Positions 27,310 to 35,148 of a DNA stretch of 64,000 nt are shown here, in pieces. The stretch comes from an uncultured Candidatus Peribacteria bacterium. Its GTDB lineage: Bacteria; Patescibacteriota; Gracilibacteria; UBA1369; LOWO2-01-FULL-3. The notes beneath the pieces were generated by a model. The model was given only the letters and a program-made list of their open reading frames with translations. It was not told the origin of the DNA and searched no databases. Position 1 is the stretch's first letter, and every line of letters begins with the position of its first letter. The DNA lies in NCBI GenBank assembly GCA_964383675.1, contig CAYLHX010000003.1, positions 2,412-66,411 on the forward strand, read 5' to 3'. A program made the position numbers and the translations under genes.

Positions 27310-29247
27310 TTACCCCGATACGACCATACCGCGTGTCAAAGCATCTCTAAATCCTTTTTGTTGCTCCAACGCGTGGTTGAAAAAACTAATGACCGATGAT
27401 AATCCGGCCAGAACGTTTGGATAGCCATTGGCAAACAGCCTATAGCTGGATTGTGGCTTAAAATGTCTCCTATAAACATTAACTATTGAGTCGCGAACTT
27501 CTTGGTCCGGACCAATGCCCACGACCAGAAAGTAAATACGAGGATCTTCAACAATTTTTTTCACAATTTTATCCAGTAACGGACCTCCATCTTGCCCATC
27601 GGTAATCAAGGTTAAAACTCTCACTATGCCATCATCATCATTGGCGGTTAAGCGATCATATTCGAAATTTAGTGCCTCATGGGTTACGGTTCCGCCCCCC
27701 CTTTTTTGCATTTCATTAAATTTTACAACTACTTCCCGAAGGGATAACAAAGCTGACATTGGTAGAACAACCTCAGGTTTATCCGCAAATACGGTTAGCT
27801 CCAGTGAGGCCGGCATTTTATCCCCCTCCTTCCAATTATATCTTTGAGGTTCGTTTGTAACTGTCTCATGCACCATTCTAATGGACTCCATCAAAGTAGC
27901 CAGAAGCCCCAACATGCCATCTGTGTATGGATACATACTTCCCGAGGTATCCAATATTAAAGCGGCCTCCAATGATAGTGAGCGTGGTTGTTCCTTCGCA
28001 TCCAGTATTGTCGGTGGCTCAAAATCACCGGACATTATCCCATAATAGGTTAGAGCCTCCATGCCCGGCTCAATCATAAAACCATCACGGTGTCCCGGAG
28101 TTATTTGCATCTCACGATCTTTCAATATGAATTCGATCAAAATTTCCTTTAACCTTTCGATGTAAAACCTATATTCATTCACATAATGCATATAATCTGC
28201 CAGTTGCTCCGGTGGGACATCAATTTGCGCCGCTTGCATTGCATCAATCGTCCTACTTGCATCAATAAGGGCTGATTTTATTGAATTTGCCAAATCCTTA
28301 TGATCAGTAGTGCTATCGGAGGTTTCCGGCTCTCCGCTTGAATCCGGGTCTTCAGTTACCATGGCATGTGGTTCCATTCCGTTGAGGAATTTATCCAATA
28401 CAGCTTCCATCTTGGCCGTGGCATCAGCCATATTCAAGGCAACCGTGTCAGCATCCAGATTTACAAGATGTGCGGCGATGTGGAAAATTTTTATCTGAGC
28501 ATGCACCTTCTGCATAACCGAAACCTGACGTTTATTACCATTGCGAATTATGTCCATTGATTCATATGCGGTTTTTAATGATTCTTTTACGCGTGGGTCA
28601 AAAATACCATCGGGCGGCAAACCAAATTTTGCCATTAACAAAAAACCGTTCATGAATTGCTGGAATAGAAAAGAATCGCCATCACCTCCTGCTGCCTCCT
28701 GCCAGGGGAAATTCTCATCACTGAGGTCGTCTTTGTAGTCTTCAAATACTTGAGGAGTTTCGCGCAAAAAATCCTGTGCCAAAGCGCGACGGTATAACTT
28801 TGACATCATACCGTGATATAAGCCGCCTCGGGCTGCAGCATTGCGCTCCTCCAAATAGATATCGGCACTGGCATTATTTAAAACCTGAATAATTTTGGCT
28901 ATTGGCAATATGCCTTTAAAGAGATGTGCAAAATTAATCCCCATAGCCTGACAAGTATCTTGAAATTTTACCAGATCAGGATGGTGGTGCCCCATTTCGT
29001 GAGCAAAAATTGCGAAAGCATAAGCCGGCCCTTTTCCTTCAACATCATGAGGGTTATAAAAAATAACTTTTTTACCCGGGAAAGTATACCAACCAATACC
29101 TATCTTTGGTGGTTCAGGATATTCCGGATATGGTAGACATTGATAACCCGTTTCATCCAAAATCGCCTCCAACATAACCATCAAGGTAGGATCCAAAATT
29201 TCTTCCAAAGTTGGTGGCAGTTTTTTCTCTAGGTCTCCCGGCTGCAT
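27310..29247 (-). CDS. Zincin-like metallopeptidase fused to a von Willebrand factor A domain
   Basis: The N-terminal part has FAIFAHEMGHHHPD (HExxH). The C-terminal part has a complete MIDAS set: LILDTSGSM (DxSxS), GGGTVTHEAL and LITDGQDG. It starts 9 nt after the AAA+ gene stop. Confidence 0.75.
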   Translation of the reverse strand: MQPGDLEKKLPPTLEEILDPTLMVMLEAILDETGYQCLPYPEYPEPPKIGIGWYTFPGKKVIFYNPHDVEGKGPAYAFAIFAHEMGHHHPDLVKFQDTCQAMGINFAHLFKGILPIAKIIQVLNNASADIYLEERNAAARGGLYHGMMSKLYRRALAQDFLRETPQVFEDYKDDLSDENFPWQEAAGGDGDSFLFQQFMNGFLLMAKFGLPPDGIFDPRVKESLKTAYESMDIIRNGNKRQVSVMQKVHAQIKIFHIAAHLVNLDADTVALNMADATAKMEAVLDKFLNGMEPHAMVTEDPDSSGEPETSDSTTDHKDLANSIKSALIDASRTIDAMQAAQIDVPPEQLADYMHYVNEYRFYIERLKEILIEFILKDREMQITPGHRDGFMIEPGMEALTYYGIMSGDFEPPTILDAKEQPRSLSLEAALILDTSGSMYPYTDGMLGLLATLMESIRMVHETVTNEPQRYNWKEGDKMPASLELTVFADKPEVVLPMSALLSLREVVVKFNEMQKRGGGTVTHEALNFEYDRLTANDDDGIVRVLTLITDGQDGGPLLDKIVKKIVEDPRIYFLVVGIGPDQEVRDSIVNVYRRHFKPQSSYRLFANGYPNVLAGLSSVISFFNHALEQQKGFRDALTRGMVVSG

Positions 29248-29256
29248 AAATATACG

Positions 29257-32200
29257 TTAAAATTCTCTCATCGGTGGAGCCTTAAACTTCTTGGGCTCCA
29301 AAACTCTGTCTATTGTACTTTGTAGTTCTATTCCGAAAATCTTGGATAATTTTTCAACATGCTGCAAATAAAGAACGGCCTGCTCATTGTTGGTTAATCT
29401 GGATCTGTGCTCTTCAAGCCAAGCTTTTTGAGCTGTAAGTATGACTGTTGAATGCTCTTCGAAGAAGCTTATCAAACTCGGATTTGTAATCGTTGTGCGC
29501 CATTCAGATATAACTTCCAATACCTCGGATCTTAGCTGTAATTCATCAAGTAAAGCTAATTTTTCCGCTTCAATCGGCAATTTAGCCGGTTCTCCCCGAA
29601 ATATTCGTTTTTCACTACCACGCCCCTTGCGCACCGGCGGTGTCAAATCAATTCCAGTGCTCCAAGTAATTGCACTTGAACTATCCAATCTCGCCAGAAT
29701 GAGATTAACTATCATCTCACTGGTCTCAAGGTCCAAATGCTTCTCTTCCAGGTACTGTTGCATTCTCTCATCTTCGGTAAAGAGTCTGGTTGAAGTTGCG
29801 ATAAGCTTTATATACTCAAAAGGGTTTTTCTTTCTATCTTTTCCAATTTGTCTGGCTCTTACCAGCTCACTTTTAGACCTGGCCAAAGTAACCCTCACTC
29901 CACTCGCCAGAGCTTCATATTTGCTTAAAGAGACATCATATCCTTCGGATTTAGCCATGTCACAAAGCCTTAGGGCCATAACTTGGTTCGCGTTTAATTC
30001 TTTGGCCGCTTTTGCCTGCGGCTCCTCTTTATCTTTTACTTTTACATATTGCAAATTTGTATGACTAGCAAAATGATGTTCAGCAAAATTATCCAGATAT
30101 GCCTGAATTCTTCCTCTATTTTTATCCAAAACATCCTTTGCCAGCCCTAAAGAGCTGATTGCCTGCAGAGTTTGAAACTCTTTAATACATCTTGTTGGAG
30201 AGTAGGTCTCATCTGTAAATAAAACCGCTTCAACCAAGGTTTTTATGTAATCCAATAGTGCCTCTTGCTTTTCCTTAGTGAGAAAAGGAGCAAGGCGCGT
30301 AAATCCGCCTATGCTGGCGGTTTGATAATTTAAGAGATATTCCCACTGACCATTGGCAATCCATTTCCTCTGCAATTCGAGTACTTTTTTAATTGTTGAT
30401 TCATCCAATTGCATGTTCATAAGATTTAACTGCAATTGAATGTCGTCTATATGCTCCTCAATAACTTCGGTGTGAGCGGGACAGCAGTCAACGCCACATA
30501 CCACACAGGATTCTTCATATGAACCGCTGTTTGCTTTCAAATCAAACTTTACATTTTTAGCTGCTGCACCGTTTCCTCCCGCCAGCTGTTGGTACATACC
30601 CCTGATTTTGCCTATCTCAAATTGGGGGACATCTACCGTAATCTTATCCAGTGTTTGTGTGGTGATATAACCCGCCGCAAACAAAACCGCTACAACTATT
30701 TCCAATGAATTAAAATGCTTATTGGCAATCGTTGGTTGAATAAATTGCTCATAAATAGCGGTTTCCAAATCAACCGGTTTTCTATTGGCTGAAAATTTTC
30801 CCTCAGGATTTAAAGCTTTGGCAATAGCGATGATTGTCCTTATGGAAAAATACGATTTCTTACCTCTAATATTTTTGGAATTGTGTAGTCGCTCAATTTC
30901 AGGGACAACGACAGTTAAAAGATGGTAAAGCTTAACCGCGTTATCCTTGGATAAGTTGCTCAATCCATCTCTGTTCGAGCTCCAAGCCCAAGCAATTTCA
31001 ACCTGCTCCTCGGTCGGTAGCATAGGCATTTCTTGAAAACGATCTGCCAGACGGCTTACCAATGCCGGCGGCAAACCTGCATTACCAAACTCCTGCCCGA
31101 TATTACCGGTAAAGAAAACTCTGAATCTATGCGGCACTCTCATCCACCTTCCTGTCATAGTGCTGAAAAACCAACCTTTCGGCTGCTTATAGTTTGCCTC
31201 TCCTTCCTCGGGAATCCAGCTTGGCATAGGGCCGGCCTCCTCATCGGTAGCAGGTATTGCCGTCAGCAAAGAGTGTAAGAAGTCAGCTTGTCTTAGATGT
31301 TGAACTTCATTAATTATTATCGGCACATTTTTTTCCAAGGCATCAAAGATCGGACCGTAAACATATGGTCCCCTTTTCTCGGCACTAACCAGAGCCAGGG
31401 CCATTTGCCTTTCTACAATTCGATCCAATCCCTGCCGCATTTTGGCAATCAGAACATCTTTGTCAGGCAATTCATTTAGATCGGTCAGTCCAATGCTGTG
31501 CATGAATTCCGCACCGGCTAAGCTTAAAATACCTTTCAAGGTATGTTCCTCCATTCCCTTCAATTGCTCTATGGTGGCAAGAGTGGCGGCTATTGGATCT
31601 GATTCCAACAGGCTCGGCTTCGCCATCAAAGTGAAGGCACTTTGGCCGGGATCAATGTCTATGGAGACGGGATCCACGCCTACAACACTTTTAATGTAGT
31701 GACTTAAAATAGCTGTCTTCCCCAATCCGGGAGCACCACCCAAAGCAACGCCAATCGCATCGGAGGTTTTTCGGCCATATACTTTTGAATGTATGCTATT
31801 TAACAAATCAAGAACTGTCGGTGTTTCCAGCACATAGGCACCATTTTGGACAGCTCTTGAATTTTCAAGGTGAGTGCGAGTCTTTATTGCAAGCCTGACC
31901 GCAGAATCTCCATAAATATCATCTCTAATCTGCACCAGCTCATCTCTTACCGGTCCTACTTGGTATGCTTCACTCAAATACTGCTCCGCTACATCAACGG
32001 CTGAACCAAAATCAAAATCGGCCTCACTACCGGCCACCGATCTCACCTCATGATAAATCTCATCGGCAATTCCGGTAACTCTCTGAATTTCACGAGTGGT
32101 AGCATCAAAATTGGCCAGAGTAGCAGGATATTGGCCAAGTTCAAGATTATTGAAGTCTATATCGGGATTTTGACAGAACTCCAAGCTCTTATCATATCCT

Positions 32201-34881: not shown

Positions 34882-35114
34882 GGGGACCCGAGGGTCCCCA
34901 TGAACTTTGGTACGTTGTGCAAAGGCTATCGGACTGAGGCGAAGCCGCTCCCGAAGGGACTGTCCGATAGCCCATTTTGGGGGCGTCCAAAACGCACCCA
35001 AAATGGCATGACACTAACTGAGTTTCTCTCACACCACCCAATGATGATGGTCAACGAGAATACCGCCCACCCTGAGGTGGAGGCACCCGCCAAAAGACGA
35101 GACTGCTACCAAAG
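34882..35114 (-). ncRNA. RT-distal copy of the same structured ncRNA (unit plus trailing hairpin and U-rich tract)
   Basis: - Closing helix: 34905..34912 pairs with 35107..35114, with the same sequence as the proximal copy.
- Junction stem: 34924..34934 pairs with 34962..34972.
- Long hairpin at 34973..35006.
- Small hairpin ccacc-ctga-ggtgg.
- A 7-bp GC hairpin at 34882..34899 is followed on the minus strand by UAUCUUUGUAUUU.

The helices match the proximal copy in position but differ in sequence. Confidence 0.6.
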
Positions 35115-35119
35115 ACACG

Positions 35120-35148
35120 AAAATAACAGAATAGAAGGGTTTTGTCAA
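35120..35148 (-). promoter_or_regulatory. Candidate promoter of the distal ncRNA
   Basis: On the minus strand: TTGACA (35148..35143), a 17-nt spacer, then TATTTT (35125..35120). The predicted +1 is near 35113, giving the same geometry relative to the closing helix as the proximal promoter. Confidence 0.4.

Follow-up and report, generated by a model that had tools for sequence, protein, structure and literature searches.

In the survey of described retrons (PMC7736814), retron reverse transcriptases (RTs) recognise msr hairpins and initiate from a guanosine flanking the self-annealed region, and no vWA, MoxR or AAA term occurs among the described types; likewise, vWA or MoxR partners are not listed in the survey of UG/Abi RTs. 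In MoxR-vWA conflict systems (PMC7159879), peptidase domains, rarely those of metallopeptidases, are fused to the vWA partner, and the link to RTs runs through diversity-generating retroelements (DGRs). Here we describe a cassette from an uncultured Candidatus Peribacteria bacterium, located in a 64,000-nt stretch of DNA (hereafter, the window; assembly GCA_964383675.1, contig CAYLHX010000003.1, positions 2,412 to 66,411 of the forward strand). Three minus-strand open reading frames (ORFs), coding for an RT, a MoxR-class AAA+ ATPase and a protein with HExxH and vWA motifs, form a tight operon, and two structured RNA genes of ~230 nt each lie on the same strand 5' of it. The cassette is a real, conserved and rare system of retron-like character. 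No earlier description was found of the combination of an RT, a putative template-RNA array, a MoxR-class ATPase and a candidate metalloprotease-vWA protein, and the system is probably antiviral.

Organization and conservation of the cassette

The genes of the operon are the following:
32501..34564, minus strand: retron-type RT of 687 aa, with a Pfam RVT_1 match, a core at about residues 70-320, YADD at 33808-33797 and a C-terminal extension of ~360 aa
29257..32490, minus strand: MoxR-class AAA+ ATPase of 1077 aa, with Walker A GAPGLGKT at 31737-31714, Walker B IIINE, sensor-1 TGN, a CxxC...CPxH motif, and helical N- and C-terminal domains
27310..29247, minus strand: zincin-like and vWA protein of 645 aa, with HEMGHH at 29001-28984 followed by NxxxDxxLE, and the metal ion-dependent adhesion site (MIDAS) DTSGS at 27951-27937

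A sequence-only reading of the window had proposed three packed minus-strand genes, and the ORF listing contains all of them at these coordinates. The RT, for which YADD had been noted, matches RVT_1 with an E-value of 6e-10 and carries YADD at residues 253-256, and the HExxH-vWA gene does start 9 nt past the ATPase stop codon (Pfam VWA, E=3.5e-9). For the ATPase, two starts had been left standing, of which the ATG at 32490, 10 nt past the RT stop codon, is retained and the overlapping TTG at 32535 is discarded; the former gives the 1077-aa product of the public database entry, and its spacing agrees with the 10-12 nt seen in relatives. The tandem structured RNA copies expected 5' of the RT are present with a shared fold (z = -4.84 and -7.32 versus shuffles).

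The trio proved to be a conserved unit, a check that the same reading had called for: the gene order is the same in all distinct relatives with enough flanking contig (10/10; L001, L002/L003, L004, L005, L010, L012, L014, L015, L017, and L022), which span two clades. Clade 1 comprises L001, L002/L003, L004, and L005-L007, with RTs of 664-753 aa, and clade 2 comprises L010/L011, L012/L013, L014, L015/L016, and L022, with RTs of 569-595 aa; the ATPases of the two clades are 28-39% identical, and those of clade 2 share 28-34% identity with that of the window. The named source genomes are metagenome-assembled genomes labelled Patescibacteria, Candidatus Peregrinibacteria, Gracilibacteria, or Peribacteria, all of the candidate phyla radiation (CPR). 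Among 5.8 billion proteins, 7 homologues of the RT, 10 of the ATPase and 6 of the vWA protein were found, and an ATPase profile run against 1.84 billion cluster representatives gave 58 proteins at E<1e-30, ~21 of them full-length. Genome and metagenome scans of public collections added three loci and one locus, respectively, and a pattern-based scan of the viral contigs of IMG/VR confirmed no homologue.

Similarity of the reverse transcriptase to retron RTs

Judged by its similarity scores, the RT appears to be of the retron type, while fitting no known retron type. In comparison with solved structures, a profile built from the RTs of both clades scored best against retron Ec67 (1e-22), Ec86 (1e-20), and Kva2 (2e-18), followed by a group II intron RT (1e-15), Drt3a (1e-4), DRT1 (3e-4), and Drt2 (6e-3). 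Across all searches, the matches to UG/Abi RTs (Drt3a, 1e-4 to 1e-10; Drt2, 6e-3 to 1e-8; DRT1, 3e-4) stayed far below those to retrons. For the clade-2 RTs, the matches to the retron RT models of PADLOC reach ~1e-40 and cover almost the entire model, with types III-A, II-A, IX, VI, X, XI, and XII scoring alike and none being preferred, and the top NCBIfam match is retron_St85_RT. A retron RT is thus the best match in each of the PDB, PADLOC and NCBIfam, yet the scores remain under the curated family cut-offs. Within the family itself, YADD and the motif-4 string LPQGFATSPAIANGVG are invariant in the homologues (seven RTs for the former); the C-terminal extension (~360 aa) has no family match.

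An RNA family with the layout of the retron priming junction

The RNA family has the layout of the retron msr-msd priming junction. The set comprises 27 units of ~190-290 nt defined in 7 loci, and every locus with sequence available contains at least one unit, except for a paralogous trio (L017) described below. All 27 units possess a closing helix (P1) formed from both ends, in which the 5' strand is followed by G and then by C or T, and the 3' strand is preceded by CG, usually as ACG. The paired strands of P1 vary by locus (CTTTGGTA/TACCAAAG, CCTTGATA/TATCAAGG, GTTTGGTT/AACCAGAC, GATCTGTT/AACAGATC, ACTCAGTT/AACTGAGT, and GTTTGTTT/AAACAAAC). For finding the units, nhmmer profiles sufficed. 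Aligned whole with MAFFT, 19 units came out of register at their 5' ends between the clades, and extraction anchored at the junction was used instead. In the resulting alignment, 93% of the P1 cells are paired, a fraction somewhat inflated by the location of P1 through a pairing search beside the anchors, and 7 of the 8 pairs show compensatory changes; none of 500 shuffles reached the P1 score, and slid registers gave 22-48% paired. Applied to five clade-1 units, RNAalifold recovered P1, three 5' hairpins (H1-H3) and the terminator, with compensation in 20 of 45 pairs.

Within arrays, the 5' scaffold is 65-94% identical and the variable part 44-69%, the latter being a level that we take, without a computed random baseline, to be close to that of unrelated sequence. 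The variable part nonetheless always folds into two or three stable hairpins. It is likely that the 5' hairpins are msr-like and constitute the recognition site of the RT, and that the variable hairpins are msd-like and serve as its template. A regular expression for one H3 apical loop common to both clades did not generalise. For comparison, the Ec86 msr-msd, found at 100% identity in 48 E. coli genomes, where it overlaps a gene annotated 'retron St85 family effector protein', reads ...CCCTTA-GCGAG ... CTGACG-TAAGGG... (hyphens at the duplex ends), which is the same arrangement of duplex-G-C and A-C-G-duplex as in the units here.

The two window units are arranged as follows, from the distal to the RT-proximal end:
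35120..35148, minus strand: promoter-like site of unit A (TTGACA, 17 nt, TG-extended TATTTT), 10/12 consensus matches; the -10 box ends 5 nt before P1
34905..35114, minus strand: core of ncRNA (non-coding RNA) unit A, with the P1 5' strand CTTTGGTA at 35114-35107, G at 35106, H1-H3 and two variable hairpins
34915-34913 and 34912-34905, minus strand: 3' junction of unit A from the junction search, with ACG at the former and the P1 3' strand TACCAAAG at the latter
34872..34899, minus strand: intrinsic terminator of unit A (GGGGACCC-TCGG-GTCCCC, then a T-rich tail), the sole terminator-like site in the region
34829..34857, minus strand: promoter-like site of unit B (TTGACT, 17 nt, CATTAT), from the promoter scan
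34602..34826, minus strand: core of ncRNA unit B, with the P1 5' strand at 34826-34816, G at 34815, the H1-H3 scaffold as in unit A and two variable hairpins unlike those of unit A
34615-34613 and 34612-34602, minus strand: 3' junction of unit B, with ACG at the former and the P1 3' strand at the latter (inverted repeat I7)
34583..34602, minus strand: GC hairpin after unit B that lacks a T-run and lies 18 nt ahead of the RT start codon; no separate promoter stands between it and the ATG

Units A and B are 89% identical over a 112-nt 5' part and 95% over a 21-nt 3' part; their middle portions differ in sequence and form hairpins in both. The predicted folds amount to -90.8 kcal/mol for unit A and -118.2 kcal/mol for unit B, and none of 200 shuffles was as good in either case. 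Each unit is preceded by a sigma-70-like promoter match, four such sites being found in the 1.1 kb scanned versus 1.1 expected. Transcription likely reads through the hairpin of unit B into the RT gene, as in the co-transcription of classical retrons.

A permissive Rfam scan of positions 26000-38000 gave no msr, group II intron or other family, and a group II intron or a known RNA family was therefore set aside as the identity of the units. The sole Rfam match, the frameshift element blv_FSE on 34576-34602 (minus strand), reached 24.6 bits versus a gathering score of 34 and was rejected as a chance match.

Arrays of units and their transcription

The sets range from 1 to 12 units, and multi-unit arrays occur in 6 of the 7 loci:
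Window: 2 units, upstream of the operon
L002: 2 units, upstream of the operon
L010: 2 units, upstream of the operon
L014: 3 units, upstream of the operon
L022: 4 units (12900-13990), all downstream of the vWA gene; its RT has no unit upstream
L001: 1 + 1 units, one upstream of the operon and one downstream of the vWA gene (17396-17720)
L015: 12 tandem units (2460-6206, ~3.7 kb), upstream of the RT

Because units are found downstream in L022 and L001, the position of the array relative to the operon is not fixed. A TTGAC[AT] box precedes all 27 units, and a stable 3' hairpin follows 26 of them. In both the window and L002, the hairpin at the end of the RT-proximal unit has no T-run and stands just ahead of the RT start codon, with no separate promoter; transcription of this unit probably continues into the RT, which is the arrangement of classical retrons. 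Other loci have an additional promoter-like box before the RT.

Five contigs assembled from short reads (L004, L005, L011, L016, and L023) terminate inside a unit. The last of these starts exactly at P1 of unit B (1-260) and derives from the same strain as the window, with 686 of 687 RT residues and the whole of unit B identical. Since tandem scaffold repeats break assemblies, the array sizes in metagenomes are likely underestimated, and such loci are probably under-counted. An assembly gap (a run of N) with a duplicated GC-rich flank is located at L010:5040-5140, ~500 nt upstream of the two units, and the L010 array may be longer than assembled. Two called genes in the L015 array (143 aa and 69 aa, with no Pfam match) overlap units and are probably spurious. 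Many L015 units contain, within a variable hairpin, runs such as GGCTTCGCTGCGCTCCGCTTCG, of a (GCTNC)n-like pattern; the window units carry the mini-hairpins GGC-TTC-GCC and CCGC-TTC-GCGG, which are shorter than these runs.

The ATPase and the vWA protein

The ATPase belongs to the MoxR/AAA_5 class. The window protein itself scores 16.5 bits against Pfam AAA_5, below the cut-off of 22, and more distant relatives of ~750 aa exceed it. Conserved in the family are Walker A (GxPGxGKT), Walker B (hhhNE) with its glutamate, sensor-1 (TGN), and an arginine. In a Foldseek search with the AlphaFold model (predicted local distance difference test score, pLDDT, 67.5), the order of matches was NorQ of the NorQ-NorD vWA complex (2e-5), CbbQ (9e-5), and then McrB. 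The CxxC...CPxH motif, at residues 662-673, is invariant; it points to an element that binds zinc and is located between the AAA+ core and the helical domain at the C-terminus.

In the third protein, Pfam VWA is detected in all six family members (best E=5e-19), and nine sequences from both clades keep HExxHH, NxxxDxxLE downstream of it, and every element of the MIDAS (DxSGS, GGGT, and TDG) without change. On these motifs, the protein would be a metallopeptidase. An 802-aa AAA_5 ATPase followed by a 681-aa HExxH-vWA homologue is encoded at L018:330-4789 with no RT upstream, and we infer from this one locus that the ATPase/vWA-zincin pair is a separate module, onto which the RT-ncRNA module has been joined. 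A further ~35 ATPases in the representative library, mostly of 700-800 aa, share this core, with E-values from 1e-60 to 1e-34; the L018-like ATPases may represent a larger, undescribed MoxR/zincin-vWA family.

Genomic setting

The window cassette is flanked on one side by genes for malic enzyme, an SLH protein, HisRS, TsaD, a NUDIX protein, the CCA-adding enzyme, a methyltransferase, and EamA, and on the opposite side by those for a 400-aa protein without a family match, an RlmD-like methyltransferase, PrsW, and LytR-CpsA-Psr. The 400-aa ORF (window:35157-36359, minus strand), which the sequence-only reading had called bactofilin-like, lost that label, as it matches nothing in Pfam or NCBIfam; its sole match is a weak PADLOC candidate (PDC-M35B, E=9e-4), and its C-terminus looks membrane-spanning. 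Neither an integrase nor a transposase occurs among the flanking ORFs tested, in agreement with that reading, and the insertion scars looked for at the cassette, namely flanking direct (att-like) repeats and an adjacent tRNA, were not found.

In other loci, the neighbours are unrelated. A second, paralogous trio is present in the genome of L001 (L017:3011-10097; GCA_042568435.1), within the same LytR-PrsW-rlmD-DUF8173-CCA backbone as the window system and at a different insertion point. The gene beside rlmD in L017 codes for a DUF8173 protein similar in size to the 400-aa ORF of the window. The L017 trio may be an RT-dead variant relying on the other locus, or one working without cDNA. Altogether, the setting fits an accessory cassette in a variable spot, which may represent the defence-island-type insertion proposed at the outset.

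Proposed mechanism and alternative explanations

We consider it fairly probable that the cassette is a retron-like system composed of two modules, an RT with an msr-msd-like ncRNA array and a MoxR-vWA-zincin effector pair. In such a system, the RT would bind the conserved RNA scaffold, use the junction G (35106 in unit A and 34815 in unit B) for 2'-OH priming, and copy the variable hairpins to give multicopy single-stranded DNA (msDNA), beginning with the C of the conserved ACG. One array would thereby yield a repertoire of different msDNAs on a common scaffold, and hence several baits. The RT-msDNA complex would restrain or license the ATPase-vWA pair, as in other retrons; upon perturbation of the msDNA by a phage product, the ATPase would engage and remodel its vWA-MIDAS partner, in the manner in which NorQ engages NorD, and the metallopeptidase thus released or activated would cause growth arrest or abortive infection. 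We hold the defence outcome and the bait idea with less confidence than the retron-like core. More speculative, and in our estimation doubtful at present, is the extension to natural 'multiplex' retrons, in which one RT would serve up to 12 mostly separately transcribed ncRNA genes, with each msDNA acting as a bait for phage DNA-binding, -modifying or -degrading proteins and the repertoire gating the MoxR-vWA metalloprotease machine. If true, ultra-small CPR bacteria would possess a set of innate receptors that is encoded in the germline and consists of DNA.

Several observations weigh against the retron-like reading. The retron signatures are NAXXH in region X between RT2 and RT3, with H most conserved, and VTG in RT7, with G most conserved (PMC7736814). 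Here NAXXH is unconserved: opposite N-A-T-P-H of Ec86, the clade-2 RTs have G-M-V-D-R and the window RT has G-M-I-D-E. VTG is replaced by (V/I)(W/L)G (V-W-G for clade 2, I-L-G for the window RT), with G kept in eight of nine sequences and T in none. The RT scores 59.5 and 131.6 bits versus a curated retron family cut-off of 235, and its AlphaFold model is poor (pLDDT 61); a fold search with this model gave one weak match, to retron Eco8 (E=0.017). Unlike classical retrons with co-transcribed msr-msd and RT, most units appear from their boxes and hairpins to be independent transcription units. As for the effector pair, Walker B of the ATPase reads N-E, not D-E (residues 394-395; 31311-31306), invariably in all ten family members, and the zincin-like head (the N-terminal 400 aa of the vWA protein) has no match by sequence in Pfam, NCBIfam, PADLOC or PDB. 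The L017 RT homologue has DFDR for YADD (LPQG corresponding to LPKG), and no ncRNA unit is located near its trio, the upstream region being 137 nt of AT-rich DNA; with the RT motif degenerate and the ncRNA missing, the proteins may act without cDNA. Finally, no known defence genes lie near the cassette, and the hosts are uncultured.

Some of these features would suit a system of the DRT (defence-associated RT) or UG/Abi style, in which the ncRNA serves as scaffold and template with no 2'-OH branch priming (for example, with protein or 3'-end priming, or with repetitive or template-jumping synthesis) and the free cDNA, or a product it encodes, is the signal to the ATPase-vWA pair. The absence of NAXXH, the long C-terminal extension, as in many UG/Abi RTs, and the promoters and terminators of the units themselves would all be compatible with it, and the (GCTNC)n-like runs of the L015 units could template repeats. 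Nevertheless, the RT matches Drt2, Drt3a, and DRT1 at E-values at least 15 orders of magnitude poorer than those for retron RTs, the P1-G junction follows the retron layout in 27 of 27 units, and neither strand of the units contains a consistent stop-free frame, for which reason a DRT2-like coding template was also rejected; we regard such a system as unlikely. The original description of an RT with upstream ncRNA as retron- or DRT-like accordingly stands in its retron part, with a retron-type RT and a retron priming-junction RNA, and not in its DRT2/DRT9 part. It is improbable, too, that the cassette is a cellular machine outside defence, with the MoxR-vWA pair as a maturation or insertion chaperone and the RT-RNA as a domesticated structural or regulatory ribonucleoprotein. 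The known MoxR-vWA pairs (NorQD, CbbQO, and RavA-ViaA) are maturation chaperones, NorQ and CbbQ being the nearest structures; housekeeping genes flank the cassette with no mobility genes, a paralogue occupies the same LytR-PrsW-rlmD-CCA neighbourhood in another genome, and the L017 variant persists with a likely dead RT and no RNA. Such extreme rarity and patchiness (~21 full-length proteins in 1.84 billion) would, however, be unexpected for housekeeping, the genomic contexts vary by locus, and a protease head together with highly variable multi-copy RNA units suits conflict systems better.

A DGR, in which the RNA would be a template repeat and the mutagenised variable repeat would lie in the vWA protein or an adjacent gene, as in DGR-linked MoxR-vWA systems from multicellular bacteria, might be thought of, since Kaur 2020 and a 2024 PNAS paper tie DGR RTs to MoxR-vWA conflict systems and, according to a review, ~80% of the RTs in CPR bacteria are DGRs. 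Within the window, this reading is effectively refuted: short-word BLAST of the RNA region against the rest of the 64 kb gave only chance matches of ≤15 nt, the differences between units A and B are compensatory stem changes and not adenine-specific, no Avd-like gene is present, and the RT scores best against retron models. Equally hard to credit is the view that the second copy is a decaying tandem duplication and that the RT adjoins the ATPase-vWA pair by accident. A single window, with its two copies, would allow this, as would the occurrence of the pair without an RT; it is refuted by the conservation data, as neither copy has lost its promoter, its P1 junction or any hairpin and both are much more stable in fold than shuffles, multi-unit arrays occur in most loci, and the trio is conserved across two clades.

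Comparison with known systems

The sequence-only reading had recognised no described system of this kind, and none was found: the RT, by its scores, appears to group with retron RTs, and no described retron type or UG/Abi group includes a MoxR-vWA pair. PADLOC has no match for the ATPase or the vWA protein of the window. In the full-text literature, searches combining retrons with MoxR, vWA, Patescibacteria or CPR returned no such system, those with MoxR or vWA turning up only Kaur 2020 (MoxR-vWA with DGRs); most subscription journals were outside this search, and an earlier description is possible. No report of natural retron arrays was found in the literature searched.

Resemblance to the MoxR-vWA conflict systems (PMC7159879), and to NorQ-NorD, CbbQ-CbbO, and RavA-ViaA, lies in the AAA_5/MoxR ATPase gene beside a vWA gene with intact MIDAS; with the former, the cassette also shares a peptidase domain, putative here, that is joined to the vWA partner at the 'effector position', and a two-gene version without an RT exists (L018). 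In contrast, the operon has no VMAP component, its third conserved partner is an RT, and the RT link runs through a retron-type RT-ncRNA module, whereas in Kaur 2020 it runs through DGRs. The ATPase is ~4 times the size of NorQ and CbbQ, with extra helical domains, the CxxC...CPxH motif, and N-E in Walker B. DRT2, DRT3, and DRT9, which are defence modules, likewise consist of an RT with a neighbouring structured template ncRNA. They differ from the present system in RT similarity (Drt3a, 1e-4, and Drt2, 6e-3, versus 1e-22 for a retron), in the retron-type closing helix and G junction found here, and in the absence here of a stop-free concatemer frame. The engineered retron arrays termed 'multitrons' (PMC10370050) are similar in that one RT serves several msr-msd units with different msd; they are synthetic, whereas the arrays described here are natural, with 2-12 units in most loci. 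A single natural RT with up to 12 templates in one locus is, as far as we found, unprecedented, and bears on multiplexed retron genome editing, in which the arrays have been engineered.

The closest relatives are retrons (types I-XIII; PMC7736814), with which the cassette shares the best RT scores, the terminal inverted repeats and flanking G of the ncRNA as in Ec86, conserved 5' hairpins with variable template hairpins, effector genes in the RT operon, and an RT-proximal window unit that appears to be co-transcribed with the RT. It differs in its effector, the pairing of a MoxR-class AAA+ protein with a zincin-vWA protein being absent from the described types; in its arrays of 1-12 ncRNAs, most of which have a promoter and terminator to themselves and some of which lie downstream of the operon; in an RT of ~2 times the usual length, without NAXXH and with (V/I)(W/L)G for VTG; and in its CPR hosts. 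The system is closest to retrons and would probably work like one, yet it is not filed under any described type, because the effector is new, NAXXH is absent, the scores are under every curated cut-off, and no natural precedent for the arrays was found. If this reading is true, the cassette provides a testable candidate for an immune system in CPR bacteria, the defences of which are poorly known, extends the retron effectors by a MoxR-vWA remodelling machine that bears a protease head, and joins the fields of retrons and MoxR-vWA conflict systems.

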